Shown here: piece by piece, positions 1 to 50,334 of the stretch
How positions within the stretch are numbered: position 1 is the first letter of the stretch
Layout of the letters: each line of letters opens with the position of its first letter
Source: Terriglobia bacterium
GTDB lineage: Bacteria; Acidobacteriota; Terriglobia; JAJPHL01; JAPKYU01
Direction: 5' to 3'
NCBI GenBank assembly: GCA_965223005.1
Contig: CBDCVK010000010.1
Span: 489,322-553,321 of the forward strand
Length of the DNA stretch: 64,000 bases
Made by a program: the position numbers and the translations under genes
The notes under the pieces: generated by a model
The model's input: the letters and a program-made list of their open reading frames with translations, nothing else
Databases searched by the model: none
What the model was told of the DNA's origin: nothing

Positions 1-515
1 TGGTTTGCCCGGTGGCCGCCACCGTTCACAGCCAGGAAGGGCTCAACGAGATGGTTTACAACCGTTGTGTCGGCACCCGCTACTGCTCCAATAATTGTCC
101 CTACAAGGTCCGGCGCTTCAATTTCTTTGCATATTCGGATTACGAGACCCCCGTCCTGAAATTGCTGCGAAATCCGGACGTGACGGTACGAACCCGGGGA
201 GTCATGGAGAAGTGCACCTATTGTGTGCAGCGAATTAATGTAGCCCGCATCGAGGCAAAAAAAGAGGACCGCGAAATCCGGGACGGGGAAATCGTGACCG
301 CCTGCCAGGCAGCCTGTCCCGCGCAGGCCATTACTTTTGGCAATATCAATGACCCTAACAGCCAGGTATCCCAGCTTAAGGCAGACCCCCGAAATTACGG
401 TCTGCTCGAAGATTTAAACACCCGGCCGCGCACAACCTATCTGGCCCGACTGAGAAACCCTAATCCCGAGCTCGAAGGAAAAGGATGGAGCCCGAACAAC
501 CAGCACGGACGCTAG
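1..515 (+). CDS. actB: Alternative complex III subunit ActB (Fe-S / molybdopterin-oxidoreductase-like), C-terminal part; the gene begins upstream of the window
   Basis: The translation has 4Fe-4S ferredoxin-type Cys clusters ([29 protein letters not shown]). It is followed, with a 31-nt overlap, by an NrfD-like membrane subunit. The M at 12 is an ORF-caller artefact; the frame is open from base 1. Confidence 0.8.
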
Positions 516-1987
516 AAGGCGAACGTGCCCCACAGATCATCGCGCCGGGACACACCTATGCGTCGGTCACCGACAAGATCAGCGCCATTGTGCTCACCGG
601 GCGCACTCCGCGCGGCTGGTGGAGGCGCTCGGCTTCGGGGTGGCCTTTGCTCTGGTCATGGTTCTGCTGTATTCGGTGGCCTATCTACTGGCCGTGGGCA
701 CCGGCATCTGGGGGATCACCGGGCGCACTCCGCGCGGCGTTCGGCTTCGGGGTGGCCTTTGCTCTGGTCATGGTTCTGCTGTATTCGGTGGCCTATCTAC
801 TGGCCGTGGGCACCGGCATCTGGGGGATCAACGTTCCGGTCGGCTGGGGATTCGCCATCATCAACTTCGTCTGGTGGATCGGGATCGGGCATGCGGGCAC
901 TTTGATCTCAGCCATCCTGTTATTGCTGCGCCAGCAATGGCGAACCTCGATCAACCGTTTCGCCGAAGCCATGACGTTGTTCGCGGTCGCCTGTGCGGGA
1001 ATTTTTCCGCTCCTTCACATGGGGCGTCCGTGGCTCTTTTACTGGCTCATGCCTTACCCCAACACGATGGGGGTGTGGCCGCAGTTCCGCAGCCCGCTGG
1101 TCTGGGACGTGTTTGCTGTCACCACCTATGCCACCGTCTCGGCGTTGTTCTGGTTTGTGGGCCTGATCCCGGACTTTGCGACGCTGCGCGATCGCGCCGG
1201 CTCGCGGTTGGCTCAAGTCATCTACGGCGTGCTGGCGATGGGATGGCGAGGCTCGGCAAAGCACTGGCACCGCTATGAAACCGCCTACCTGCTTCTGGCC
1301 GGGCTCGCCACTCCTCTGGTGATCTCGGTGCACACCATTGTCAGTTTCGACTTTGCGATAGGCATCATTCCCGGCTGGCACGCCACCATTTTCCCTCCCT
1401 ATTTTGTGGCGGGCGCCATCTATGCGGGCTTTGCCATGGTCCTGACCCTGGCCATACCAGTCCGCGCCATCTATGGACTGCAGGATTTCATCACCATGCG
1501 GCACCTGGAGAACATGGCCAAAGTCATGTTGGCCACGGGCCTGATTGTCGCCTACGGCTACTTGATAGAAGCCTTCATGGCCTGGTATAGCGGGAATCGG
1601 TACGAACGGTACATGATTTTGAATCGGCTGAACGGTCCATACGCCAGTCATTACTGGGCGCTGCTGCTGTGCAACGTCGTGACCCCGCAGTTTCTCTGGT
1701 TTCGGCGAATCCGCACGAACGTGGTCACGCTGTTCCTGATCGCCATTGTGGTCGGCATCGGTATGTGGTTGGAGCGATTCATCATCGTTGTTACCAGCCT
1801 GCATCGGGACTTCTTGCCTTCCTCCTGGGGCATGTATGCCGGCACCCGCTGGGATTGGGCTACGTTTGCGGGTTCGATCGGCCTGTTTTTTGCCCTGCTG
1901 TTCTTGTTCGTCCGCTTCCTGCCAATGATTTCGATTTTCGAGATGCGGACTATCGTGCCGCGTTCGGAGGACCGGAGGAAGTCATGA
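485..1987 (+). CDS. actC: Alternative complex III subunit ActC (NrfD/PsrC-like polytopic membrane protein) carrying an internal imperfect tandem duplication
   Basis: The 500-aa ORF has conserved NrfD motifs ([32 protein letters not shown], many TM helices). Bases 595-716 and 717-828 are near-identical direct repeats. Confidence 0.8.
595..828 (+). repeat. Imperfect tandem direct repeat inside actC: copy 1 is 122 bp, copy 2 is 112 bp
   Basis: caccgggcgcactccgcgcgg...ggcatctgggggat occurs twice back to back. The copies differ only by ctggtggaggcgct versus cgtt. Copy 1 is read out of frame in the long ORF (Trp-rich [33 protein letters not shown]). Copy 2 encodes the conserved TM1 ([30 protein letters not shown]). 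Confidence 0.85.
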
Positions 1988-2015
1988 CGGACCCGATCGG
2001 GGGACACGTCGGAGA

Positions 2016-2561
2016 GTGCGCAGTATGAAGAAAGCGGCCCTTTACGGATTGATGGCTGAATTTGAGACTTCCGAGGCCGTGGTGGCTGCCGTACGCCGTG
2101 CTTACCAGGAGGGATACCGGCGGATGGATGCCTACACGCCCATGCCGGTTGAGGGATTGGCCGAAGAGTTCGGCTTCCATCATACGCGGCTGCCGCTCAT
2201 CGTTCTGCTCGGGGGGATTGCCGGAGGCGTTGGGGGATTCCTGTTGCAATACTACACGTCGGTGATCGACTTTCCCCTCAACGTGGGAGGCCGTCCCTTG
2301 AACAGTTGGCCCGCTTTCATCCCGATCACATTTGAGATGACCATTTTGGTTGCGGCATTGTCAGCAGTGCTCGGAATGTTGGCGCTCAACGGCCTTCCCA
2401 GGCCGTATCACCCGGTCTTCAACGTTTCTCGATTTGCGCTGGCCACACGGAACCGCTTCTTTCTGTGCGTCGAAGGCACCGATCCTAAATTTGACCTGGT
2501 TGCCACCAAGCGGTTCCTGGAGAGTTTAGGCCCGCGTGAGGTATCTGAAGTTGCGCCATAA
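2016..2561 (+). CDS. actD: Alternative complex III subunit ActD (DUF3341-like membrane protein)
   Basis: 181-aa ORF directly after actC with two predicted TM segments, in the conserved position in act operons. Confidence 0.7.
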   Translation: MRSMKKAALYGLMAEFETSEAVVAAVRRAYQEGYRRMDAYTPMPVEGLAEEFGFHHTRLPLIVLLGGIAGGVGGFLLQYYTSVIDFPLNVGGRPLNSWPAFIPITFEMTILVAALSAVLGMLALNGLPRPYHPVFNVSRFALATRNRFFLCVEGTDPKFDLVATKRFLESLGPREVSEVAP

Positions 2562-3171
2562 CACGATCCACTATCCGTGCGCGAACCATATTCCGGGAGG
2601 GGGCGTCCGGATTGGCCTGCTCGTCCTTTGTTCCCTTTTGCTGGGAGGGTGCCGCCAGGATATGCACGACCAGCCCAGGTTCGAGGCGCTGGAGGCCAGC
2701 ACGTTCTTCGAAGATGGCCAATCCGCGCGGCCGCTGATAGCCGGCACGGTGGCCCGCGGTCATTTGCGCAGAGATGAGCATTTCTACGCGGGGAAATCTG
2801 ACGGGGCCTTGGCCGATACCTTTCCCTTTCCAGTTAATCGTGAGGTCCTAGCGCGAGGCCGAGAACGTTTCGACATTTTTTGCTCACCTTGCCACGGTCG
2901 CGTGGGAGCCGGCCGGGGCATAGTCGTGCGACGAGGGTTTCGCTCGCCGCCGTCGTTTCACATCCCGCGGCTGCGCGAAGCTCCGGTAGGACATTTTTTC
3001 GACGCCATAACGAATGGCTTTGGCGGCATGGCTAGTTACGCGAGCCGGATTTCGCCTGAAGACCGCTGGGCGATTGTCGCCTACGTGCGCGCGCTCCAAT
3101 TGAGCCAGCACGCCACGCTGGCCGACGTTCCGTCAGAGCAACGTTCGGAACTCGTTGGGACCGCAGAATGA
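2536..3171 (+). CDS. actE: Alternative complex III subunit ActE, a monoheme cytochrome c that is probably a lipoprotein
   Basis: Single CxxCH haem-binding motif (CSPCH). N-terminal hydrophobic segment ending LLLGGC. The true start may lie a few codons downstream of 2536. Confidence 0.75.
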   Translation: MRYLKLRHNTIHYPCANHIPGGGVRIGLLVLCSLLLGGCRQDMHDQPRFEALEASTFFEDGQSARPLIAGTVARGHLRRDEHFYAGKSDGALADTFPFPVNREVLARGRERFDIFCSPCHGRVGAGRGIVVRRGFRSPPSFHIPRLREAPVGHFFDAITNGFGGMASYASRISPEDRWAIVAYVRALQLSQHATLADVPSEQRSELVGTAE

Positions 3172-4358
3172 ACGAATTCGAAACGCTCCGTCCCGAACTG
3201 GATCGCATTCGAAAGCAAGCGCTCGTGGTGGGCAGCGTGGCCTTGGGAGTCTGCATCGTAGGAGGCTTTCCCAACCCGGAGCAATTTTTCCGCTCCTACC
3301 TACTGGGCTACCTGTTCTGGATCGGAATCGCGCTGGGAAGCCTCGCCATCTTGATGCTGCACCACATGGTCGGCGGCGCGTGGGGTTTTGTGATCTGTCG
3401 CGCGCTCGAGTCCGCGACACGCACGCTGCCGCTGATGGGCTTGCTGCTCGTGCCACTACTGTTCGGCATCTACAAGTGGGGTGTAGTGTATAGCTGGGCG
3501 CGCCCCGAGGCAGTGGCTGCCGATGAACTCTTGCAACACAAGAGCCCTTACCTGAATGTCCCCTTTTTTTTCACTCGAGCGATCGTTTACTTCGCGATTT
3601 GGATCGCGATTGCCTACTTCTTGAATAAGTGGTCAGCCGAGCACGATCGAACTGCGGACGGCTCCTTTGTGCGTCGGCTTCAGATTCTCAGTGGGCCCGG
3701 ACTGCTGCTTTACGGGCTCACCGTATCGTTTGCTTTTGTGGACTGGGTCATGTCGTTGGAGCCGCATTGGTTCTCAACGGTTTACGGCGTCATGTTTATG
3801 ATCGGGCAGGCGCTGGGGGCGCTAGCCTTTGCCATCGGCGTGACCGCGCTGCTCGCCAAGCGCAAGCCTTTGTCGGACGTCGTCGAGGCCGGGCATTTTC
3901 ACGACCTGGGTAACCTCCTGCTGGCTTTCGTCATGCTGTGGGCCTACATCGCGTTTTCCCAATACTTGATTATCTGGTCGGGCAACCTGCCGGAGGAAAT
4001 TCCCTGGTATCTGCACCGCAGTTTGGGCGGCTGGCAATGGGTGGCGCTACTGTTGTTCCTTTTCCATTTTTGTTTGCCCTTTCTGGTGCTACTATCTCGC
4101 GTCGCGAAGCGCAGGGTACGAATCCTGGCCACGGTGGCGGCGGCCATGACCGTGATGCGTCTGGTGGATTTGTTCTGGCTGGTCGCGCCGGCATTCCATC
4201 CTACTGGGTTCAGCCTCCATTGGATGGATCTGGGGGCACCGGTCGGTATCGGAGGAATTTGGATAGCAGTGTTTGTTTGGCAACTGGGCAAGAGAGCCCT
4301 GCTGCCGGCGTATGACCCTCGTGTGAATGAAGAGATGGGGGTTGCTGAAGGCACTTGA
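3168..4358 (+). CDS. actF: Alternative complex III subunit ActF (second NrfD-like membrane subunit)
   Basis: 396-aa polytopic membrane protein, paralogous in architecture to ActC, overlapping the actE stop. Confidence 0.75.
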   Translation: MNEFETLRPELDRIRKQALVVGSVALGVCIVGGFPNPEQFFRSYLLGYLFWIGIALGSLAILMLHHMVGGAWGFVICRALESATRTLPLMGLLLVPLLFGIYKWGVVYSWARPEAVAADELLQHKSPYLNVPFFFTRAIVYFAIWIAIAYFLNKWSAEHDRTADGSFVRRLQILSGPGLLLYGLTVSFAFVDWVMSLEPHWFSTVYGVMFMIGQALGALAFAIGVTALLAKRKPLSDVVEAGHFHDLGNLLLAFVMLWAYIAFSQYLIIWSGNLPEEIPWYLHRSLGGWQWVALLLFLFHFCLPFLVLLSRVAKRRVRILATVAAAMTVMRLVDLFWLVAPAFHPTGFSLHWMDLGAPVGIGGIWIAVFVWQLGKRALLPAYDPRVNEEMGVAEGT

Positions 4359-4377
4359 AGCCCGCTGTAGGCGCGTG

Positions 4378-4803
4378 ATGAGTGAGACGAACCAGTCCGA
4401 GGAAAGCCTGGGCCGGCGATACCAGCCGAGCGAGCCGGACGTCGGACGCATTGCGCTGTTCGCGGTCCTGCTGGTGATTTCCGTCGGGGTGGCCCTGTTG
4501 GCGATGAGCTGGACATATACCATCCTGGCTGGCCTCCAGCCGGAGCCTTCTCCGACGGCTTCTCTGTGGGCGGAAGCGGAGCGTTTGCCGCCGCAGCCTC
4601 GCCTGCAAGTCGTCCCCGCACGGGATCTGCAAACAGCGCGCATTGATGAGGAGGCTTTGTTAAATAGCTACGGGTGGGTCGACCCAGAGGCCGGCGTGGT
4701 CAGAATCCCGATCGAGCGGGCCATCGACGTGCTTGCCCAACGGGGCCTCCCTGCCAGGGATCGGAGACAAGAAACCCGGAGGAGCTCTGATCGAAAGCCA
4801 TGA
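4378..4803 (+). CDS. Hypothetical membrane-anchored protein (possible ActG-like accessory subunit)
   Basis: ORF 4327-4803. The likely start is the internal Met (MSETNQSEE). It has one TM helix (IALFAVLLVISVGVALLAM) and lies between actF and sco. Confidence 0.4.
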   Translation: MSETNQSEESLGRRYQPSEPDVGRIALFAVLLVISVGVALLAMSWTYTILAGLQPEPSPTASLWAEAERLPPQPRLQVVPARDLQTARIDEEALLNSYGWVDPEAGVVRIPIERAIDVLAQRGLPARDRRQETRRSSDRKP

Positions 4804-5696
4804 CAGTTAGCGCGGCTCATCAGAAAGGGCAACGAATTCTGAATTGCGGTGCAGGGTCTCGACCTCTGGGATCTCGTTTCATCGTGTTGCTGTGTCTTTG
4901 CCTGCTATTAGCGCTTGCTGCGGATCTGGCTCAGGCGCAGAACCTCCGGCCCGCGCCCTTGCGTGACGTTGGCATTGATCAAAAGCTGAACGAGCAATTA
5001 CCTTTGAACCTGACCTTTCGGGACGAGACCGGCAAGCCCGTACAACTTCGCCAATATTTTGGCCAGAAGCCGGTGATCCTATCTCTTGTCTATTACGATT
5101 GCCCCATGCTCTGCACGTTAGTGCTGAACGGGTTGGTCCGGAGCCTCCGGGTTGTTCCCCTCGATGTGGGAGATCAATTCGATGTGGTGACCGTAAGCTT
5201 TGATCCACGGGAGACGGCTGCGCTGGCAGCAGCCAAAAAGGAAACTTATGTTAGGCGCTATGCCCGAGCTCAGGCATCACAGGGGTGGCACTTTCTTACT
5301 GGCGAGGAGGCCTCGATTCAACAACTGACCCGGGCCGTGGGATTCCGCTATGCCTACGACGCGAAAAGCGGGGAGTTCGCTCATGCCACCGGGATTATGG
5401 TCTTGACGCCTACCGGCAGGCTTGCCCGCTACTTTTACGGAATTGATTATTCGCCCAGGGACTTGCGCCTGGCGCTGGTGGAAGCCTCGGCCAATAAGAT
5501 CGGCTCGGCCGTTGACCAGTTGCTACTGTTTTGTTTCCACTACGACCCCAAAACAGGAAAGTACAGTCTGGTCGTCATGAATGTCCTCCGCGTCGCTGGG
5601 ATGGGCACGCTTCTGACCCTGGGGAGCTTTCTGTTTGTCATGTTTCGCCGGGATCGGCGCAAATACTGGAAGCCGGAGGAAACAGGTCCGGCGTAA
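4800..5696 (+). CDS. sco: SCO1/SenC family copper chaperone (thioredoxin fold)
   Basis: Signal/TM segment, then CPMLC (CxxxC copper-binding motif) in a Trx-like domain, with a C-terminal TM. Located immediately upstream of coxB. Confidence 0.8.
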   Translation: MTVSAAHQKGQRILNCGAGSRPLGSRFIVLLCLCLLLALAADLAQAQNLRPAPLRDVGIDQKLNEQLPLNLTFRDETGKPVQLRQYFGQKPVILSLVYYDCPMLCTLVLNGLVRSLRVVPLDVGDQFDVVTVSFDPRETAALAAAKKETYVRRYARAQASQGWHFLTGEEASIQQLTRAVGFRYAYDAKSGEFAHATGIMVLTPTGRLARYFYGIDYSPRDLRLALVEASANKIGSAVDQLLLFCFHYDPKTGKYSLVVMNVLRVAGMGTLLTLGSFLFVMFRRDRRKYWKPEETGPA

Positions 5697-5705
5697 GAGA
5701 CGAGA

Positions 5706-5724
5706 AGACCGGCGATGCCGGTCT
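5706..5724 (+). terminator. Perfect 8-bp hairpin (AGACCGGC gat GCCGGTCT) between sco and coxB; possible attenuator or terminator
   Basis: Read directly from the sequence. Followed by cttactgctttgg (weakly U-rich). Confidence 0.25.
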
Positions 5725-5740
5725 CTTACTGCTTTGGATT

Positions 5741-6684
5741 ATGTGGGAAGGTTTTCCTTTATTCCCTGAACAGGCGTCCACCGTAGCGGGCGAAGTGGAC
5801 ATGCTGTTTTATTTCTTGATCGCAGTCAGTCTGTTTTTTACCGTTCTAATTTTCTCGCTGATCTTTTACTTCGCCATCCGCTACCGGAGACGCTCCGAGA
5901 CTGAACAGCCTCGTCCGATGGTCGGCTCCATCGGACTGGAGTTATTCTGGTCCATCACTCCGTTCATGATTACGGTGGTCATGTTTGTTTGGGCGACCAG
6001 CCTGTATTTCAAAAATGCCAGTCCTACGGCGGGAGCATTAGAGATCTATGTAGTTGCCAAGCAATGGATGTGGAAACTTCAGCATCCGGAGGGCCAGCGG
6101 GAAATCAACACTTTGCACGTGCCGATCGGCCGTCCCGTCCGTTTGATCATGACCTCCGAGGATGTTATCCACAGTTTTTACGTGCCTGCATTTCGGGTGA
6201 AATACGATGTATTGCCAGGACGGTACACAACCCTCTGGTTTGAGCCCACAAAAACCGGAGAATACCACTTGTTTTGCGCGGAATATTGTGGAACGAAACA
6301 TTCTCAGATGGCCGGTCGCGTCATCGTCATGACGCCACTGGAATTCGAGAAATGGCTGGGAGGGACCGCGACAGGAGAGTCGCTGGCAGAGGTTGGTCAG
6401 AGGTTGTTCCAGCGGCTCGGGTGCATTACCTGCCACCGCCCGGACGCGAGCGGACGCGGGCCCGTGCTGGAAGGTCTGTTCAACAAACCGGTGCCCTTGG
6501 CCACCGGAGAGACTGTGATCGCGGACGAGGACTACCTCCGGGAGTCGATCCTGCGGCCCAGCGCGAAAATGGTGGCTGGATACACCGTGAGAATGCCAAC
6601 CTTCCAGGGCCAGATCGGCGAGGAGGGGCTGGTGCAGATCATTGCCTTTATTAAATCTCTTAGTCGGGAAGTGCAAATCGAGGA

Positions 6685-6688
<4 letters not shown>
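5741..6688 (+). CDS. coxB: Cytochrome c oxidase subunit II with a fused C-terminal cytochrome c domain (caa3-type)
   Basis: CuA motif region ([19 protein letters not shown]...[12 protein letters not shown]). C-terminal CITCH haem c motif. Start refined to ATG 5741, after the sco stop at 5696. Confidence 0.9.
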
Positions 6689-8305
<1,617 letters not shown>

Positions 8306-9381: not shown

Positions 9382-9992
9382 CTATAGCGGGCTCACCGAC
9401 AGCAACCAGTTCGCAGCCATGGTCCCGGCAGCCTGCAGCCACGCCAAGGAGGACTTTCGTGGTTCACAACGCAGGATTCCAGCGGATGGGAAACTTGGTG
9501 AGTTATCGTCTCCCTCCACGCTGCTCCATCGAACCGGAACGGACATGGGTGGGGCAGGTGGGGAGTCTGCTCCCAGCGCCGTGAGGGAACTCTGACGAGC
9601 CTGCGCGAGCCCGTAGCTGGACAGCGTTCCTCGCCAGCCCAGTTGCGGTGAGAGAAGAAAACCCGATTGCCACCGTTGGTCCGGCAGATAGGGGCGCTCC
9701 AAAGCAACCAGCGGTTGCCAGTCGGTTTGAGGCACCAACGACAAGAGACTAACCAGCGGCGAGGACAATGCGAGCAGTGAGAAGGTTGCGTGATAAGTTG
9801 AGAGTTCCAGCGGTCCGTAGCCTAGCGAGGGTAGCCGGGATCCAATCGTGAACTGCAGATGTCCGAAGGCGCTCACTGGTCCCAACGGCCCCGAGGCTTT
9901 TCCTTCACCAGGATACTCAGGTCAACGCAGTGATCCTCCGGAGCCAGCTTCATGCGGACGTCGGATTCTACAACCGGTTCGATCAAGACGAG
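9382..9992 (-). pseudogene. Degenerate remnant downstream of a truncated Omp85/BamA-like gene. The expected beta-barrel-coding region has no intact frame.
   Basis: Only short broken ORFs on the minus strand. The POTRA gene upstream on this strand terminates prematurely at 9993. Confidence 0.3.
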
Positions 9993-11228
9993 CTAGCTTA
10001 GACGCGCCAAGCTACGGCGCAGTCGTCCCTCATCAAACAAGTCCCCCTCTTGCAACAGCAGGGCTCGTCGCAGGGTCGAATCGCCGACCGCATGGTGGCC
10101 GCGAAATTCAATCTGCCCCACCCGATAGACAGCCCCGGTTTCAATTTTCGCCTTGAGGGCGACCCATGGGCGGGCAACCGCACCCGTTTCAGCTAACCCT
10201 CCTCCCTTCGGGTCAATTCCCCCTCTGTCCCGGAGACGTTCCGAGGTCGTTTTTGCTTCCAGCAAGGCGGTGAACCCAAGTTTGCCCTCTCTTTCCGACT
10301 CGCGGCGTGCTTCTAAGAGGAATTGACACAGTTCGCGACTCGAAAAAGTGCCATCCGGCTGCGGCGGAAGTTCTTGGATCGACTCGGCTCCCACGACCTC
10401 CAGCCGCTCCACGCGATAGCGCGGTCCCGCATCCACCTGCACCGTAACTGTGGCTTTGTCCTCTGCGGTGTTCACGGTGGAGATTCCTACCTTGGCATCA
10501 AAGTAGCCGCGGGAAAGATACAGCGACTGAAGACGTTCCACGTCGGCCTGGAGGCGCTGCTGGCTGAGAGGCGCAAGTAAGCGCCAACCTCGCCATAACG
10601 GGCCTAAGCCAGGCAACAAGCGTTGCGCGCGAGTCGCGCGCAACGCTCCCCGCAACTCGTTTGGTTTCAACCCTAATGATCCCGAGAAGCGCATCTCCTG
10701 TACCCGATAGTCCCGGCCCCGCTCCACCCGGACCCGCAAGTCCGCCTGCTGGAAACCCACCGGGATCACTCCGGCTTCCACCGTCGCCTCAGCGTGACCC
10801 TGCTCGACTAGCTGCTGCCGCAGCGCAGCCGCCACTCTCTTGGCCAGCACGGCATCGATGGGCGTGCCGTTCTCAAGGTCCACCGCGCGACGCTCGTTTT
10901 CGGGGTCGAACTCAACCCGCCGCAGGTGAAGCCGCGGCTTCTCTGCCAGAATGAAAACCAGGTGCACTCCCTCCACGGATGGAGAGCTTTCGACCAGGAT
11001 GGCGTTGAACCAGCCCGTCGCCCACAGGCGACGGACGTCGTGCTCAATACGGACCAGGTCGAGCGTTTGGCCGGAGCGCGTCTCTAATTCAAGAGGCCGC
11101 AGGCTGCCACGAATCTGCAACGTTTGGATGAATGGACTGTCTGCCGCCCATAGCGCAGCATGGGAGAGAAAGGAAAGGAGGAGGGTTCTCCAAATGAACG
11201 GTCCTACCATGGAAGTAACCTCGTTCAA
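9993..11228 (-). CDS. Omp85/BamA-family protein fragment: signal peptide plus repeated POTRA domains, with the C-terminal barrel missing (probable pseudogene)
   Basis: 411 aa. N-terminal signal peptide (LLLSFLSHAALWAADS). Repeated POTRA-like beta-alpha-alpha-beta-beta units (..YRVQEMRFSG.., ..YRVERLEVVG.., ..YRVGQIEFRGHHAV..). It stops inside the last POTRA domain. Confidence 0.55.
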   Translation of the reverse strand: MNEVTSMVGPFIWRTLLLSFLSHAALWAADSPFIQTLQIRGSLRPLELETRSGQTLDLVRIEHDVRRLWATGWFNAILVESSPSVEGVHLVFILAEKPRLHLRRVEFDPENERRAVDLENGTPIDAVLAKRVAAALRQQLVEQGHAEATVEAGVIPVGFQQADLRVRVERGRDYRVQEMRFSGSLGLKPNELRGALRATRAQRLLPGLGPLWRGWRLLAPLSQQRLQADVERLQSLYLSRGYFDAKVGISTVNTAEDKATVTVQVDAGPRYRVERLEVVGAESIQELPPQPDGTFSSRELCQFLLEARRESEREGKLGFTALLEAKTTSERLRDRGGIDPKGGGLAETGAVARPWVALKAKIETGAVYRVGQIEFRGHHAVGDSTLRRALLLQEGDLFDEGRLRRSLARLS

Positions 11229-34460: not shown

Positions 34461-35006
34461 TCATCCCCCGGCAGACAGACGACTGCAAACCGCATAGGCG
34501 CCGTTGGGGTCAATCGCGCTCCCGCCTTTCTCGATGTGGCGAATGATCCCCTGCTTATCCACCACGAAGGTGACCCGCAGAGCGAAGTTGCGCTCGGGAT
34601 CCAGAATCCCGTATTTCTTGCTGACCTCGCGCATGAAGTCGCTCAGAAGCGGAAACTTCACCCCGAGGTCTTCGGCGTAACGACGATTGGCGTAAGAGCT
34701 ATCCACGCTGATGCCCAGCACCTGCGAGCCGGTCTTTTCGAATTTGGCGATATCATCCTGATACGCCTTCAGTTCCTTCGTTCAACCACCCGTGAATGCC
34801 AGGACGTAGAAGGCCAGTACCACATTCTTCTTCCCCTTGAAATCGCTCAACCGGACCGGCTTGTTGTTCTGATCCGGAAGCGTGAAATCGGGCGCGGAAT
34901 CGCCTACTTTCAGATGGGTCATGACGTCGGGTGGCGGCTGAGCCGGGGCCAGACTGAGTGGCGCGGGCAGAATCAAAGCCAGTGCCAAAGCTGTTCGACA
35001 AACCAT
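34461..35006 (-). CDS. Exported PrxQ/Bcp-type peroxiredoxin with an in-frame UGA (34782-34784) at the peroxidatic Cys position: predicted selenocysteine-containing peroxiredoxin
   Basis: ORFs 34782-35183 and 34461-34721 are in the same frame, separated only by TGA. Read through, the sequence is ...VVLAFYVLAFTGG-U-TKELKAYQDDIAKFEKTGSQVLGISVDS..., matching the Prx motif FYP.DFTPGCTxE with Sec replacing Cys. Signal peptide MVCRTALALALILPAPLSLAPAQ. A SECIS-like hairpin follows the UGA, and selC lies 3.3 kb away. Confidence 0.7.
34746..34767 (-). promoter_or_regulatory. SECIS-like hairpin in the mRNA 15 nt downstream of the in-frame UGA
   Basis: mRNA: UGA acgaaggaacugaa GGCGUAUC AGGAU GAUAUCGCC. 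This is a GC-clamped stem with one bulged U and an apical loop containing GG/U. Spacing and shape are like bacterial SECIS elements. Confidence 0.45.
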
Positions 35007-39834: not shown

Positions 39835-40584
39835 TCATCGAGCGAGCTTCCGGTAGTCCTCGGCGACGATATCAACCAGGCGGCACATTTCTTGCAGCCG
39901 GGACGTCACTCGCGCTCCCAGGCGCTCTTCGAAGGTTGCATACGTGCGGCGCTTTCCAGGCACGCCGCTCACGGGGTCTTCCTTCAGATTGGCGGTGAGC
40001 AGCGTGGGCTTCTTCTCGTTGTAGCGGTGATTGAGGAGGTAGTTAATGGTGTCTTCCACCCAGTCGGAAACGCGGTTGGCTCCCAGATCGTCAATCACCA
40101 CCACTTCGGTCTCCAGTACCGGCCGCATCACCTCACGCTCGGCGGTCAGCGCCTTCGGGTTGTAGCTGGACTGGATGCGCTTCAGCAGTTCCTGGTAGTC
40201 CAGGAACAGGACTTCGGCGCCCTTCTCGACGAGGCCTTTCAGCAGAGCCACCGTCAGGTGGGTCTTGCCGACGCCGGTCTCGCCCATCAGTAGCAGGCCC
40301 TTGCCGTCCACCAGCGGGTAGTCGGCCAGGTACTGATCCACGACGCCTAAAGCTTTCCACAGCGACTCGTTGCGCGGGCCGCCCCGCGGCGGGTACAGCT
40401 CGAAATTGGTGAAGGCGCAGGCCTGGTACCGCGGCGGAATCCGCGCCGCAGCCAGTGCGCGCTCCAGGCGGGTCTGGGTGCGGCACTCGCAGGGCACCAC
40501 GGCGTCGCCGGTTCCGCTGGAGCGCCAGCCAGTGCCCGAGCACAGCGGGCACGCCACAGATGCGTCACTGATCGGCGAGGCCAT
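39835..40584 (-). CDS. DnaC/DnaI-like AAA+ ATPase with an N-terminal Cys4 zinc-binding motif (helicase-loader family)
   Basis: CPLCSGTGW...CECR zinc motif. Walker A GETGVGKTHL, Walker B VVVIDDLG. Confidence 0.65.
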   Translation of the reverse strand: MASPISDASVACPLCSGTGWRSSGTGDAVVPCECRTQTRLERALAAARIPPRYQACAFTNFELYPPRGGPRNESLWKALGVVDQYLADYPLVDGKGLLLMGETGVGKTHLTVALLKGLVEKGAEVLFLDYQELLKRIQSSYNPKALTAEREVMRPVLETEVVVIDDLGANRVSDWVEDTINYLLNHRYNEKKPTLLTANLKEDPVSGVPGKRRTYATFEERLGARVTSRLQEMCRLVDIVAEDYRKLAR

Positions 40585-40739
40585 GGCATCCAGTCCAAGC
40601 TATCCCGACACCGGGCAAATTCCGGTCCCTACAATATCGCCTTGAACGCCATGGGTCAAAGAATGCCGAGTGTCTCCTACACAGGCGCCGGAGACGCTCG
40701 TAAACACGGTGGTAGTGGCCGGGCTTTAGCTGCTCCAAT

Positions 40740-41606
40740 TCACGGCTTTGTCTTATGAGCGCTAAGCAGAAATCCAGACACGATTCCAATGAGCTGGATT
40801 GCTGCTCGCGCTTCTACATCTGAAACGGTCGGCAGCCAAGGTCTTCCGTGTCCAGTACCCTCCTTGTTTCTGAGAGCGTTCACAGCACAACCAGTCTCGT
40901 ATAGAGCCCGCGCCAGTCGACGCTGTGGCGGTTCGGTTTGCTGTGGTGCGGTAAGTGGAGTTGCGAGCTCTAATGCTGTGAACGCCTGACCGAGCAGTGT
41001 GGGGAAGTTGGCTTGTTGAGGATACTGTCCGTAGCGTTCATAGATCACGTGAGCCGCTGTGGCCTCCAACAGGTCTTTGCCCGCGCCCACCAAGAGCGCG
41101 GCATCCTGACTTCCTCGTCGGGCACGCCGAACATACGCCTCTAGGGCGCTTGTTAACTGCACACCAGTGAGCGTGTCGATACTAGTGGGTTGGAGCTCTC
41201 CTTCCGCCGTGAGCACATACCCTTCACCGCGGAATGCGTCCGCAGCATCTGTGATTGCGTCTTCCCTGACAAAGTTGGGAGACCCGCGGCGGAATCCACC
41301 CTTTCCCCGAATCAGCGCAACCAGTGCAGCTAGGAAGACCTCTCCGCTTTCGGGAGCATTATCCAACGCCCAGCTCAACACTGCTCGAACTCTCTTCGCC
41401 TTACCGACGATTTGCCCCTGCAATTTGGGATCGCCTGCGCCCAGATCTGCGCGAGTAATCCGGAACTCGATGTCGGAATGGCTTGGCTCGCGCGTTTCTG
41501 TCTGCGCGTCGTCTACAAGGCGAGCGACCGCGGTTATGATGGCGTCACTGAGCGGCGCGTGCGGTCGTTTTTCTCGTTGATTCGTTGTCACACTTGACCA
41601 CCCCAC
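40740..41606 (-). CDS. Abortive-infection-like protein with a C-terminal Abi_C/HEPN domain (AbiJ-like architecture)
   Basis: C-terminal ...ALYETGCAVNALRNKEGTGHGRPW... carries the HEPN Rx4-6H motif (R-NKEGTG-H), in the context typical of the Abi_C family (RN..GtGHG). The N-terminal ~180 aa are unassigned. Confidence 0.5.
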   Translation of the reverse strand: MGWSSVTTNQREKRPHAPLSDAIITAVARLVDDAQTETREPSHSDIEFRITRADLGAGDPKLQGQIVGKAKRVRAVLSWALDNAPESGEVFLAALVALIRGKGGFRRGSPNFVREDAITDAADAFRGEGYVLTAEGELQPTSIDTLTGVQLTSALEAYVRRARRGSQDAALLVGAGKDLLEATAAHVIYERYGQYPQQANFPTLLGQAFTALELATPLTAPQQTEPPQRRLARALYETGCAVNALRNKEGTGHGRPWLPTVSDVEARAAIQLIGIVSGFLLSAHKTKP

Positions 41607-41642
41607 CCAATACCGATGTGAACCAGCCTAACGCAATGAAGC

Positions 41643-42221
41643 TCAGTCGCGCGGCGCCTTCTTGCAGTTCGCTGCATCCTGGCACTCCACAGCTACGCTT
41701 GGTCGCTTCGAGACCTGGCTCCTCCCCTTATTCCACAGAGCGCCAAGGACCCCCAACCACACGGTCCCGACAAACACCATGACCCAAGGGTGAACGCACT
41801 TCTCATACAGGTGAACGCACTTCTCATACAAGTTGAACAGTAACTTGACGCCTACCACGGTGAACGAACCCACGAACATATGCCACATGTGGGGCCACCT
41901 CGGCGTTGTATCCTGTAGGAAATCCTTGAGTTTCCCTTCTTGTAGTAATTCGTGGTGAAGGCGCGACCGGAAAAATCGAAAGGTGGCGACGTAATACACC
42001 CCCATCACGGTCAAGAGAAGGCCAGCGGACTCAGGCCACAACTCTTCGGCGTTTTTGTCATCAAAGCTAGCCGCGAGCAGAGCACCAACCCCAGCTGAGA
42101 AAATGGTGATTACGACCCATTGGAGTTGGTCATAGTGTCGGCTCCACTCCTGCCCATGCTGGTGCGCATCCTGGTCGGTTTTCTTTCTTTCTTTTTCCTC
42201 GTCTTCCTTTTCCACCGACAC
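41643..42221 (-). CDS. Hypothetical multi-TM membrane protein in a lower-G+C patch; carries an internal 21-bp tandem duplication
   Basis: 192 aa. Acidic N-terminus (SVEKEDEEKERKK) then 4 TM helices. LYEKCVH is duplicated (41790-41831). Codon usage is visibly AT-richer than its neighbours. Confidence 0.45.
   Translation of the reverse strand: MSVEKEDEEKERKKTDQDAHQHGQEWSRHYDQLQWVVITIFSAGVGALLAASFDDKNAEELWPESAGLLLTVMGVYYVATFRFFRSRLHHELLQEGKLKDFLQDTTPRWPHMWHMFVGSFTVVGVKLLFNLYEKCVHLYEKCVHPWVMVFVGTVWLGVLGALWNKGRSQVSKRPSVAVECQDAANCKKAPRD
41790..41831 (+). repeat. 2 x 21-bp tandem repeat GTGAACGCACTTCTCATACA(G/A)
   Basis: Read directly from the sequence. Encodes LYEKCVH-LYEKCVH on the minus strand. 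Confidence 0.8.
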
Positions 42222-42664
42222 CTCCCTTGCAGCCTAACTCTTGTTTATGCTGTCCCGCATAAAATCCGTCCCGGTCGGCACAAGAGGAAACCCCCACAGC
42301 CGGGCTGCGGTGGTGACTTCTGAGTTCAGCGGAATTCGCGTCCGCGTGCAATTATAGCTGACCGAGATGCCTTAGAGCGGTTGACGATAGTGCGCTATAG
42401 CCTTGTAGCCAATCCTTCTTCCCGTGTGCCTGTTGCTGTCGCGAACAGCCCTTTACACCAACAAACGATTACCGCCCAATAAACGCTGTTCCCGGATTGT
42501 GACTTCGGGCTGGGATGCGCCGGTTTCCAGTTCAAACTGACCGACTAGCGGAGGGGTGGGTCGTTGATGCGGTTAGGGGCGTGTGCTAGGATGGGCGTCT
42601 TGGAAGCCGCCGGGAAAATCTACCGGGGCGGAGCCTTCCCTTTCCGCTCCAAGGAGCTTCTGCC

Positions 42665-44776
42665 TTGAAGGTGTACCACGGCAAAGACATCCGCAACGTT
42701 GGGGTGGTTGGCCACGGGGATGCCGGTAAGACCACGCTGGTCTCCGGGCTGCTCTACACGGCCGGCATTGTGACCCGGCTGGGCCGTGTGGACGACGGCA
42801 ACACGGTGACTGATTTCGACGAGGAGGAAATCCAGCGCCGGGTGAGCATCTCGACCGGGCTGGCCTACCTGGAATGGAAGAAGGTCAAGGTCAATCTGCT
42901 GGATACGCCCGGCTACAACATCTTCCTGAATGACGCCAAAGGCAGTCTGGTCGCCGCCGATACCGCGCTGGTGGTGGTGGACGGGGTGGCAGGAGTGGAA
43001 GTGCAGACCGAAAAAGTGTGGGGCTTTGCCGAGGAGAACAGCCAGCCCCGGCTGCTGGTGATCAACAAGATGGATCGGGAGCGGGCCAGCTTCGAGCGGG
43101 CGATGGAATCCATCGGCAACGTATTCGGCCGCGCGGCCATTCCTCTCCAGTTGCCGATCGGAGAAGAACGCGGCTTCCGCGGCGTGGTGGATCTGCTGCG
43201 GATGAAGGCGTTCACCTACCAGAATGACGGGGACGGCAAGGGAGCGGAAGCCGACATTCCCCCCGAGCTGGCCGAGGCCGCCGGGGCTGCCCGCGACAAG
43301 CTGGTGGAGATGATCGCCGAGGGCAAAGATTCACTCATGGAGGAGTTCTTCGACCAGGGCACCCTGAGTCCGGAACACCTGCAGGAGGGGCTGCAGGAAG
43401 CCATCCGCGCCAGCAGGATTTATCCCGTGTTTTGTGTCTCGGGCTATCACAACGTGGGCAACGACCTGTTATTGGATTTTCTGGTGGATTTCTTGCCCAC
43501 CGCGGTCGAGCGCGGTTCGGTCTCTGGCAGCGTTCCGGGAGACGGCGCCGGTCCGCTCGCCCGGAAGCTGGCGGACTCCGAACCTGTTTCCCTGTTTGTC
43601 TTCAAGACCAGCGCCGACCCGTTCGCCGGCCGCCTCTCCTACTTCAAGGTCTACTCCGGAGTGCTGAAGAACGACACCACCCTGGTGAATTTCAACAAGG
43701 GACACCAGGAGCGGCTTGCCCACATCACGGTGGCGCAGGGCAAAGAGCATGCCGGAGTGCAGGAGATCCGGGCGGGGGACCTGGGGGTGGTCACCAAGCT
43801 GAAAGACACCGTAACGGGCCAGACGCTGGGGGACAAGGCGGCCCCGATTCTGTATTCTCCCGTGAAGCTGCCCGAGCCGCTGATTGCCTTCGCCATCCAG
43901 CCCAAGTCGCGGGCCGATGAGGACCGCCTGGGCCCCGCCTTGCACAGGATCCTGGAGGAGGACCCGTCGCTGCGCTTCTACCGCGACCCGCGAACCCACG
44001 AATTCCTGCTAGCCGGGGCCGGGCAGCAGCACGTGGAGGTGATCGTCTCCCGGCTCAAGCGGCGCTACCACGTGGAGGTGCAGTTGAAGGCGCCCAAGGT
44101 GCCCTACCGCGAGACCATCCGCGGCACTGCCGACGTAGAAGGCAAGCATAAGAAACAAACGGGCGGCCACGGCCAGTTCGGCGTCTGCCAAATCAAGATG
44201 GAACCGACGCCGCGCGGAGCCGGCTTTGAGTTTGTCAACGACATCTTCGGCGGGGCCATCCCCAAGAACTACATCCCGGCGGTGGAGAAGGGCATCGTCG
44301 AGTCTGCCCAACGCGGCTTTCTGGCAGGCTATCCGGTGGTGGACTTCCGCGCCACCCTCCATGATGGGAAGTATCACGATGTGGATAGTTCAGAGTTGGC
44401 CTTCAAGATTGCCGGTTCGCTGGCCTTCAAGAGCGCCATGAAGGAGGCCAAGCCCATCTTGCTGGAGCCGATCATGAGCGTGGAAGTCCTCTCGCCGGAC
44501 CAATTCGCCGGCGACCTCATGGGAGACCTAAACTCCCGACGGGGCCGCATCCAGGGCATGGAGAACCGGGGGACGCTCACGGTGATCAAAGCGCAAGTGC
44601 CGATGGCCGAGATGCTAACCTATGCCACCGACCTGACCTCCAAAACCCAGGGGCGCGCCAGCTATAGCATGGAATTCTCCCACTACGACACGGTGCCACA
44701 GCAGATTGCCGATAAGGTGATCGCTGCCACGAAAGCGGCGCGTGCGGCCGAGGCAGCGGGGGAGGGAGAAGCATAG
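42665..44776 (+). CDS. fusA: Elongation factor G (EF-G family translational GTPase, possibly an EF-G2 paralogue)
   Basis: 703 aa. G-domain motifs GHGDAGKTT, DTPGY, NKMD, plus EF-G domains II-V. Confidence 0.9.
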   Translation: MKVYHGKDIRNVGVVGHGDAGKTTLVSGLLYTAGIVTRLGRVDDGNTVTDFDEEEIQRRVSISTGLAYLEWKKVKVNLLDTPGYNIFLNDAKGSLVAADTALVVVDGVAGVEVQTEKVWGFAEENSQPRLLVINKMDRERASFERAMESIGNVFGRAAIPLQLPIGEERGFRGVVDLLRMKAFTYQNDGDGKGAEADIPPELAEAAGAARDKLVEMIAEGKDSLMEEFFDQGTLSPEHLQEGLQEAIRASRIYPVFCVSGYHNVGNDLLLDFLVDFLPTAVERGSVSGSVPGDGAGPLARKLADSEPVSLFVFKTSADPFAGRLSYFKVYSGVLKNDTTLVNFNKGHQERLAHITVAQGKEHAGVQEIRAGDLGVVTKLKDTVTGQTLGDKAAPILYSPVKLPEPLIAFAIQPKSRADEDRLGPALHRILEEDPSLRFYRDPRTHEFLLAGAGQQHVEVIVSRLKRRYHVEVQLKAPKVPYRETIRGTADVEGKHKKQTGGHGQFGVCQIKMEPTPRGAGFEFVNDIFGGAIPKNYIPAVEKGIVESAQRGFLAGYPVVDFRATLHDGKYHDVDSSELAFKIAGSLAFKSAMKEAKPILLEPIMSVEVLSPDQFAGDLMGDLNSRRGRIQGMENRGTLTVIKAQVPMAEMLTYATDLTSKTQGRASYSMEFSHYDTVPQQIADKVIAATKAARAAEAAGEGEA

Positions 44777-48593: not shown

Positions 48594-49409
48594 ATGCCCA
48601 GGGCCCTCTTCCAGGTGCAGCGCATGCGCGGCGGAGCCCAATCGCACCTGATTTTCTGTGAAAATGGCAGCTTCTATGTCGTGAAGTTTCAAAACAACCC
48701 CCAGCATGTCCGTGTTTTGGCCAATGAAATGCTAGCTACTTCGCTGGCAAACTTTCTTGGGCTACCGGTCCCCGAGTTTGCCGAGGTGGAGGTGTCAGCG
48801 GAGCTGCTTGAGCGCGCTCCAGAGCTGAGTTTCCAGGCTGTCCAGGGACGTGTGGGTTGCGCCGCCGGCCGGCACTTCGGCTCGAAGTTGCCGGTTAATC
48901 CCTCGCGCGAACCACTCTACGATTTTGTCCCGGACCAGACGCTGGCGCTGTTAGCGAATCGCCAAGCCTTCGCCGGCATGTTGGCCTTTGACCAGTGGAC
49001 GTGCAATGCCGACGCGCGCCAGGCAGTGTTCTGTCGAGCCCCGGATTCGGGGGGTCGTTACCGGGCTCTGATGGTCGACCAGGGCTTTTGCTTCAACAAT
49101 GGCGAGTGGAATTTCCCCGACTCGCCTCTCCGCGGGCTGTATCCGCGGTTGGTCGTTTATGAGGGCGTGACGGGCTGGGACAGCTTTGATCCCTGGTTGA
49201 CGCTGTTGCGCGAGATGGACTGGCGCGTGGCGGAAGAGTTTGCCGGCCGGGTTCCGCCCGCCTGGTACGACGCTGAGGACGCGGCCTTACAGAAGTTGGT
49301 GGAAGCTCTGGACCGTCGCCGCCGCCGCCTTCCAGAACTCCTGGAGGCCGTGCGGCGGAGCCCGAAGAATCCGTTCCCCAACTGGCGATTGCAACTGGCC
49401 GCCAGGTAA
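48594..49409 (+). CDS. HipA_C-like kinase-fold protein with a non-canonical catalytic motif (possible pseudokinase)
   Basis: GGAQSH.. (compare the HipA Gly-rich loop AGAQxK), YVVKF...NEMLATSLANFLGLPVPEF (compare HipA yIlKf...nE..rLA...Gi.vpe), and FDQWTCNADARQ. The last aligns to the HipA catalytic loop, but DHxKN is replaced by ARQAV. Confidence 0.4.
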   Translation: MPRALFQVQRMRGGAQSHLIFCENGSFYVVKFQNNPQHVRVLANEMLATSLANFLGLPVPEFAEVEVSAELLERAPELSFQAVQGRVGCAAGRHFGSKLPVNPSREPLYDFVPDQTLALLANRQAFAGMLAFDQWTCNADARQAVFCRAPDSGGRYRALMVDQGFCFNNGEWNFPDSPLRGLYPRLVVYEGVTGWDSFDPWLTLLREMDWRVAEEFAGRVPPAWYDAEDAALQKLVEALDRRRRRLPELLEAVRRSPKNPFPNWRLQLAAR

Positions 49410-49548
49410 GGAGTGGCGGCCAACGGGCCGCGGATAACCTCCGGTGCATAGCCGCCATAGAATAGCCGGAGATCAGAAGCGCCGCGGGCAAGCTACGGCG
49501 GTAGTCAGGAAGCAGGCGGCAGTGAGGTAGCAGAGGGAGGGGTAGCAG

Positions 49549-50334
49549 ATGGAAACATTTCGATTTCAGTTGCTGCGCTACGTGCCCGATCCAGTCAAGA
49601 ACGAATTTATCAACATCGGCGTGGTGCTGCTGGACGACCTCAGCCATTCGCTGGGCGTCCGCATGGCCAGTGAGGCCGACCTGCGCCGCGTGCGCTGTGT
49701 CCATCCGGGCGCCGACCTGGACTTGCTTCGTTCCTGGCAGGCCACCGTGGAAGACGAACTGGCTCGCCAGCCCGAGGCGGCAGGCGAGTGGCTGCGTTCC
49801 CTGGAGGAGGTGGCGTCCCACTCGCTTCGCTGGACCTCGCCGGCGGGTTGCCAGAGCCGGGACGCACCGGTCGCACTGCAGGAACTCTACGAACGGTTCG
49901 TGGCCTCACCGCCGCGGGCCGCTGTGGGCGTCCGTCCTGGAACCGCTGCCTGGGTGAAGCGGGAGGCCGACAGCGTATTCCGGGCTTCGGGGTTGCTGGA
50001 GCATTTCCAAAGCGGAGTTTGGGCCCAGCGCTTCACCTATCCGGGCGACCCATTCCGCATTCACTACGCCTATAGCAATGGCGCGCCTCGCTACATCCAC
50101 ATGCTCTCTCTTGAGCATTCGATACAGCAGGCCAAGGTCCTGGCATTCACCTTCGAACGCATCCAGCGCAACGGGCAGGGGGCTCTGACCTCGGTGGTGG
50201 AGCCGGAACCCCGGCCCATCCCGACGGTCCAGTTCACGCGTCAGTTGCTGGAACAGAGCGGCATTGAAGTCGTTTCACTGGACCGCATCCAGGCCTTGGT
50301 GCGGAGGGCCAGGGAGGAGCTCCGTCTCGTTTAG
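49549..50334 (+). CDS. DUF3037-like protein
   Basis: N-terminus METFRFQLLRYVPDPVKNEFINIGVVLLD matches the characteristic DUF3037 signature (..LRYvPd...gE.iNiGVVL.). Confidence 0.55.
   Translation: METFRFQLLRYVPDPVKNEFINIGVVLLDDLSHSLGVRMASEADLRRVRCVHPGADLDLLRSWQATVEDELARQPEAAGEWLRSLEEVASHSLRWTSPAGCQSRDAPVALQELYERFVASPPRAAVGVRPGTAAWVKREADSVFRASGLLEHFQSGVWAQRFTYPGDPFRIHYAYSNGAPRYIHMLSLEHSIQQAKVLAFTFERIQRNGQGALTSVVEPEPRPIPTVQFTRQLLEQSGIEVVSLDRIQALVRRAREELRLV

Follow-up and report, generated by a model that had tools for sequence, protein, structure and literature searches.

A small strain-specific islet of a Terriglobia bacterium with a candidate stand-alone Abi_C/HEPN defence gene and a probably unrelated membrane protein gene

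Two adjacent minus-strand genes were analysed in a 64,000-nucleotide stretch of the genome of a Terriglobia bacterium (contig CBDCVK010000010.1), the whole of which is called the window here. One encodes an Abi_C/HEPN protein, and the other, directly upstream, a protein with four transmembrane (TM) segments. An earlier note on this DNA had proposed that the pair is a two-gene defence or abortive-infection module. All of its sequence observations were confirmed, including the two minus-strand open reading frames (ORFs) at their coordinates; its interpretation stood as far as the Abi_C/HEPN identity and the islet placement are concerned, and fell for the two-gene module.

The gene pair and its insertion block

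The Abi_C/HEPN protein gene occupies 40740-41591 on the minus strand and encodes 283 amino acids (aa) from a GTG at 41591, which is preceded by a GGTGGGGTGG stretch. A longer ORF (40740-41606, minus strand) would start at the GTG at 41606 and give 288 aa; gene callers preferred the GTG at 41591 in three public assemblies, which hold the identical 283-aa protein (P0001). The four-TM protein gene lies at 41643-42215 on the same strand and encodes 190 aa from GTG 42215, within an ORF whose full span is 41643-42221; this GTG is the likely start, as it stands 7 nt past a GGGAGG Shine-Dalgarno sequence at 42223-42228. The 66-bp leader of the Abi_C gene (41592-41657, minus strand) is made up of a 51-bp spacer and the final 15 bp of the TM ORF, and homology to foreign DNA starts here. 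Both ORFs are flanked by a DnaC/IstB-like AAA+ gene (39835-40584) and by an EF-G-like gene on the plus strand (42665-44776).

The genes are both of foreign composition. The TM gene, which had been noted earlier as atypical, has a G+C content (GC) of 0.543 and a GC at third codon positions (GC3) of 0.67, compared with a GC3 of 0.74-0.82 in six neighbouring core genes and a GC of 0.61-0.65 in the flanking core genes. The Abi_C gene (GC 0.577, GC3 0.546) equals the TM gene in atypicality and exceeds it at GC3.

Three sibling genomes (L096, L097, and L098) carry the EF-G-like and DnaC-like genes directly adjacent to each other, with a spacer of ~220-390 bp, and the gene pair therefore resides in one strain-specific insertion, which bears out the suggestion that it is an islet between conserved genes. 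The DnaC-like protein of L096 is 97% identical to that of the window, and those of L097 and L098 are 83% identical; all three genomes keep the gene order SLT/LysM, EF-G-like, DnaC-like, Tmemb_14, TsaD, and MlaEFD. According to this adjacency and to the points at which flank homology breaks, the insertion block is ~1.85 kb long (40713-42554) and contains both genes. Homology of the flanks to the window stops at ~42555 and ~40712, with the right flank matching the native sequence upstream of the DnaC-like gene in another relative (L099). The sequence CCACC is present at both block borders (40708-40712 and 42555-42559), and a single CCCCACC is found in relatives, which is consistent with a clean ~1.85-kb insertion accompanied by a 5-bp target duplication or microhomology; being only 5 bp long, the border repeat may also be due to chance. 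At the borders, neither inverted repeats nor a tRNA gene or integrase was found, the CCACC repeat being the only feature there.

The surroundings of the islet vary in other relatives as well. In L099 (positions 1-8000; DnaC-like protein 83% identical), genes for DDE transposases, DUF5131, HTH_3, and Fic proteins replace the EF-G-like gene upstream of the DnaC-like gene. In L096 (8747-10378), a gene for a 543-aa Kelch beta-propeller protein is located between the DnaC-like and Tmemb_14 genes; the window (equivalent site between 39826 and 39834) and L097 are without it, and it marks a second variable spot at a distance of one gene from the islet. The L099 cargo at the islet site, together with the Kelch insertion, indicates that this neighbourhood is recombination-prone.

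On the minus strand, a scan for promoters and terminators found only one promoter-like site, which is native and precedes the DnaC-like gene. Inside the inserted block, a perfect TATAAT is present at 42352-42357 (minus strand), ~135 bp upstream of the TM start, with no good -35 element; it may serve as a promoter for the islet.

Domain, motif and distribution of the Abi_C protein

The assignment of the downstream gene to Abi_C/HEPN was borne out by a Pfam match, an invariant motif, and the predicted fold. The match to PF14355 (Abi_C) scores 45.9 bits against a cut-off of 24 (E = 6e-12), spans residues 202-281 of the 288-aa ORF, and covers profile positions 1-82 of 83. In the 283-aa protein this domain corresponds to residues 197-276 (40764-41003, minus strand) and forms the C-terminal part of a HEPN-like helical bundle. 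It includes a catalytic-type HEPN motif, R241-N-K-E-G-T-G-H248 (40848-40871, minus strand), which reads as Rx6H or as R-polar-x5-H. The general HEPN pattern Rx4-6H, with a polar residue following the arginine, is thus represented by R241-N242...H248, and the all-helical up-down bundle expected of HEPN proteins is seen in the AlphaFold model (predicted local distance difference test score, pLDDT, 86.8). In an alignment of 38 diverse homologues from many phyla, R241, N242, G245, G247, H248, and G249 are invariant (motif RNxxGxGH), far beyond what chance would produce, and all 38 match Pfam Abi_C.

The same alignment has 40 invariant columns, ~26 of which fall within residues 11-195. This conserved N-terminal and middle region (41007-41561, minus strand) lies outside Pfam, NCBIfam, PHROG, and PADLOC families, and it is as conserved as the HEPN core, with a mean pairwise identity of 0.56-0.63 vs 0.58. 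It is presumed to be a sensor or regulatory domain. Library scans gave no NCBIfam, PADLOC, or PHROG family match for the protein as a whole. Outside the HEPN part, sequence profile and fold searches returned no significant match in the PDB, and the first ~140 residues have no significant solved counterpart; Foldseek against the PDB gave nothing significant, and the sequence profile search gave only caspase-4 (E ~0.3-0.9). A sub-threshold match to Pfam Peptidase_C14 was also present in eight of the 38 members (E >= 0.015). This caspase p20 likeness, located at 41061-41249 (residues 115-177), was put down as probable noise, since this part of the model consists of helices and a single beta-hairpin.

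The family is large and widely distributed. The database search returned >2,200 homologue clusters, with full-length identities of 66-100% among the top 120. When one genome per species was scanned, 77 loci emerged that are 47-73% identical; they belong to Acidobacteriota, Gemmatimonadota, Chloroflexota, Planctomycetota, Bacteroidota, Bacillota, Pseudomonadota, Actinomycetota, and Deinococcota, and a Kaiserbacteria match in the database search adds the candidate phyla radiation. The family is spread horizontally across at least 10 phyla. Together with six nearest-relative loci (75-86% identical), 83 Abi_C loci were checked. On plasmids, 12 records out of 72,556 contain the family, under the annotation 'abortive infection family protein', and it was not found among 50,697 phage genomes; the absence from phages and the rarity on plasmids are neutral with respect to a defence role.

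For 68 full-length Abi_C homologues, every ORF located up to 3 kb away was clustered, and no neighbour family was found in more than five of these 68 loci. Hence, the gene-neighbourhood check suggested in the earlier note turned out negative: no neighbour of any kind is conserved beside the Abi_C homologues. The gene directly upstream is not constant in size, strand, or type, and no membrane protein recurs there. The surroundings of the family feature restriction-modification, BREX, DISARM-like, retron/DRT, and transposase genes; the individual neighbours include type I restriction-modification, PglX, DRT, PD-T4-6, ThsA Macro domain, caspase, KAP NTPase, and transposase genes. Beside the nearest relatives there are a TaqI_C-type gene with an unrelated 133-aa ORF, or an integrase with transposases, or a PLD-SNF2 gene with an Eco57I-type methylase. 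Being absent from the siblings of the window genome and having defence and mobile neighbours elsewhere, the Abi_C gene is an accessory gene of the defence-island or mobile type.

Three Bacillaceae loci (L048 2536-5802, L050 668-3934, and L051 2529-5795) carry a conserved 1,088-aa gene directly upstream of the Abi_C homologue. Three members of the neighbour census have full-length matches to PglX, the BREX methyltransferase, and these are most likely the same 1,088-aa genes.

In Vibrio cholerae, the homologue L052 (47% identity across residues 13-276) is flanked by a VCR/attC repeat on either side and is the only gene between them. As a one-gene integron cassette, it indicates that the Abi_C gene alone is a unit of mobility. 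The cassette feature belongs to this V. cholerae family member, and the copy in the window is without attC sites.

The membrane protein and its relation to the Abi_C gene

As had been reported, the upstream same-strand gene encodes four hydrophobic segments, at residues 34-50, 66-82, 113-129, and 144-160. The AlphaFold model consists of four long helices (pLDDT 76.6) arranged as a generic four-helix membrane bundle. No Pfam family was reached above the cut-off, and there were no PADLOC, NCBIfam, or PHROGs matches, in agreement with the earlier view that this protein is outside recognised families. A word-index search matched the protein to itself alone, and it was first regarded as an orphan; this was ruled out by an exhaustive phmmer search, which recovered 95 distant relatives of ~140-170 aa, the best at 49% identity. 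The relatives and the motifs common to them (EWSRHYDxLQW and FRxFRxxLH) show that the TM ORF is a real gene of a sparse, uncurated family.

The gene also contains a perfect in-frame 21-bp tandem duplication at 41789-41830 (minus strand; copies at 41789-41809 and 41810-41830), by which LYEKCVH is repeated in the variable TM3-TM4 loop. A sibling strain (L001/P0121) has a single copy of the 21-bp unit and a protein of 183 aa vs 190 aa, so the duplication, described as fresh in the earlier note, is a recent polymorphism.

A metagenome scan yielded four TM-family loci, and the broad family alignment is too divergent for pattern scans. The TM-family loci share no common partner of their own. Around the second-closest homologue (L083 1-8404, 46% GC) there are numerous small genes without annotation as well as a gene for an AAA_25 (RepA/DnaB-like) ATPase, which suggests that the family resides, among other places, on plasmid-like or phage-like elements.

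Whether the four-TM and Abi_C/HEPN proteins constitute one two-gene abortive-infection system, for example a membrane effector or anchor together with an RNase sensor, depends on whether the genes keep company elsewhere. Within the window's species, both genes are accessory and are found only together; they share a strand, both are of foreign composition, and they are jointly absent from the siblings. However, the common insertion block in this one species is the sole evidence that links them, since the two families never co-occur beyond it among 83 Abi_C loci and seven TM-family loci. None of the 77 Abi_C loci from the genome scan was matched by the 95 TM-family queries (tblastn), and the TM-family hidden Markov model, run against six-frame translations of these and the six nearest loci, matched the window's own species alone; conversely, no Abi_C gene was found in the seven distinct TM-family loci. 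The same is seen at the DNA level. Homology to the nearest foreign Abi_C locus (L090; 83.5% over 931 bp by blastn) is limited to positions 9935-10863 of assembly L002; it runs from 66 bp before the Abi_C start to 11 bp past the stop, leaving the TM gene outside, and this nearest relative (86% identical) has another gene upstream. Moreover, the V. cholerae homologue is alone in its cassette, tested Abi_C proteins act alone, and the two genes differ in GC3 (0.55 for Abi_C vs 0.67 for TM). Judged from these sequence comparisons, the TM and Abi_C genes are not a conserved two-gene system, and we regard the abortive-infection pair as very improbable.

Many HEPN proteins are toxins of toxin-antitoxin systems, and AbiV has an RNA antitoxin (PMC13064643), so the 21-bp tandem repeat ~200 bp upstream of the Abi_C start could recall a type III arrangement like AbiV/AbiF, in which the HEPN toxin is neutralised by an upstream repeat RNA, or a related one with an upstream protein. 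This is the least probable of the alternatives considered. The repeat lies in frame within an ORF of a conserved family, has ~2.3 copies, and has one copy fewer in the sibling strain; Tandem Repeats Finder detected no recurrent repeats in 70 upstream regions of homologues, the region has no Rfam match, and the neighbours include no recurrent antitoxin family, whether MNT-type or other. Small ORFs found upstream of the homologues were considered as antitoxin candidates and rejected, being mutually unrelated and non-coding, junk-like, in appearance. A role of the Abi_C protein outside defence, as an accessory RNA-processing or stress RNase or as a selfish addiction gene that retains mobile DNA, would fit a conservation that is uncommonly strong among defence genes (47-86% identity across phyla, the N-terminal region and the active site being equally conserved) and the lack of PADLOC or PHROG matches; in addition, the related protein SadR also reduces plasmid uptake, suggesting a broader role against mobile genetic elements (PMC13590631). 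However, the distribution is patchy and strain-specific, with the gene absent from the siblings, defence and mobile genes abound among the neighbours, and Abi_C proteins have been validated against phage. We consider a non-defence role to be very improbable.

The explanation that we favour, and hold to be likely, is that the locus is a recently acquired ~1.85-kb islet with two functionally independent cargo genes, one for a stand-alone Abi_C/HEPN defence RNase and the other for an unrelated membrane protein. Our best guess is that the TM protein most likely was unrelated cargo beside the Abi_C gene in the donor DNA. Several points weigh against this explanation. The two same-strand genes are 51 bp apart with no terminator predicted between them, and within one block they may be co-transcribed and functionally linked locally. 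The sample of TM-family loci is small, as the seven distinct loci are mostly short contigs. No PADLOC model matches the Abi_C protein, which places it outside every system of that 2023 library, and we infer its RNase activity, its defence role, and its trigger.

According to tested relatives and general knowledge of HEPN proteins, the stand-alone Abi_C protein could work as follows. The conserved N-terminal domain (~190 residues) would keep the HEPN domain off until a phage-linked cue activates the protein; the Rx6H motifs of two HEPN domains would come together as an RNase site, and the RNase would cut cellular or phage RNA, so that growth stops before phage release (abortive infection). We infer that the protein would act as an autonomous sensor-effector.

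Elsewhere in the window, we also observed two adjacent plus-strand genes at 48594-50334, encoding a HipA_2-like kinase (271 aa) and a DUF3037 protein (261 aa), a possible toxin-antitoxin-like or conflict pair; in sibling L096 the HipA_2 gene is broken into pieces of 105 aa and 143 aa. At 34461-35001 (minus strand), two short adjacent ORFs (~85 and ~81 aa) resemble the halves of an AhpC/TSA-Redoxin protein, and of these the 85-aa ORF alone matches Pfam, at the C-terminal half of the profile. The split recurs in all sibling genomes, which rules out an assembly error. In assembly L002, an 824-aa gene also seemed to be split, but the window does not have this split, and it was dropped from consideration.

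Comparison with known Abi_C and HEPN systems

AbiJ is the founder of the Abi_C domain, a single-gene abortive-infection protein whose mechanism is still unknown and whose HEPN RNase is the presumed effector (PMC13064643). The window protein shares with AbiJ/Abi-859 of Lactococcus lactis the C-terminal Abi_C/HEPN domain. However, it has no Pfam match to AbiJ_NTD3, NTD4, or NTD5 (E up to 1), and neither do the 38 family members (E up to 10). Without an AbiJ_NTD domain, the window protein is not AbiJ sensu stricto, and the lack of any match to these three domains or in PADLOC indicates that its N-terminal region is a different, uncurated domain. HEPN-MNT toxins and Csm6/Csx1 differ from the window protein too, which has neither an MNT nucleotidyltransferase partner nor a CARF domain, and no conserved neighbourhood.

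Taranis is an Abi_C cassette of the superintegron of V. cholerae N16961, which gives phage protection as a single gene; it was reported in Bacillota, in Actinomycetota, and in Burkholderia near integrases (bioRxiv 10.1101/2024.07.02.601686). The window's family includes a V. cholerae one-gene cassette (L052), and its list of loci matches the reported spread of Taranis. Based on this cassette homologue and the matching spread, rather than on a sequence comparison, the two are very probably the same family. Unlike the Taranis N-terminus, which was described by its authors as distantly related to AbiJ_NTD5 (bioRxiv 10.1101/2024.07.02.601686), none of the 38 members of the window's family has an AbiJ_NTD5 match with hmmscan at E up to 10. 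That the subfamily is a distinct defence family, 47-86% identical across at least 10 phyla, with the ~190-residue N-terminal region as a new sensor fold, is an idea that we put forward tentatively and think rather unlikely. On this reading, an N-terminal region as conserved as the RNase site would point to an invariant cue, either host-side or universal among phages, rather than a fast-evolving phage protein. In a weaker variant of the idea, the co-inserted four-TM protein would have been recruited as a membrane partner in this lineage.

The wider interest of the family lies in its >2,200 clusters, its unusual conservation across phyla, its having been missed by PADLOC 2.0, and an N-terminal domain without a known fold. 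If this domain is the sensor of the trigger, its conservation would be informative on what single-protein HEPN defences detect. The locus itself is a clean and datable small defence islet, bordered by repeats of 5 bp and located beside a helicase-loader gene at a site prone to recombination. For annotation, the gene is best described as a stand-alone Abi_C/HEPN defence candidate of the AbiJ/SadR/Taranis class rather than as half of a novel two-gene system, and labelling the upstream membrane gene as a defence partner should be avoided.

Of the tested proteins, SadR of Staphylococcus aureus (Nat Commun 2026) is a single Abi_C-domain protein that degrades RNA and blocks phages as well as plasmid uptake; both activities are lost when R225, N226, or H232 of its RNEYGDAH motif is changed, so that motif-dependent RNase activity of the HEPN type is known for this relative (PMC13590631). 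In a survey of 2,815 Abi_C proteins, 2,257 had no recognised N-terminal domain, and a five-residue spacer was typical (PMC13590631). SadR and the window protein both belong to this class, the largest in the survey, and both are encoded in variable or mobile DNA. They are alike in being single proteins with a C-terminal Abi_C domain and the R-N-x5-H spacing (RNEYGDAH in SadR vs RNKEGTGH in the window protein), and differ in the phylum of the host; the likeness is drawn from the Abi_C domain and motif, not from full sequences. Single-gene Abi_C/HEPN defence proteins are thus already known, and the window gene probably adds another.

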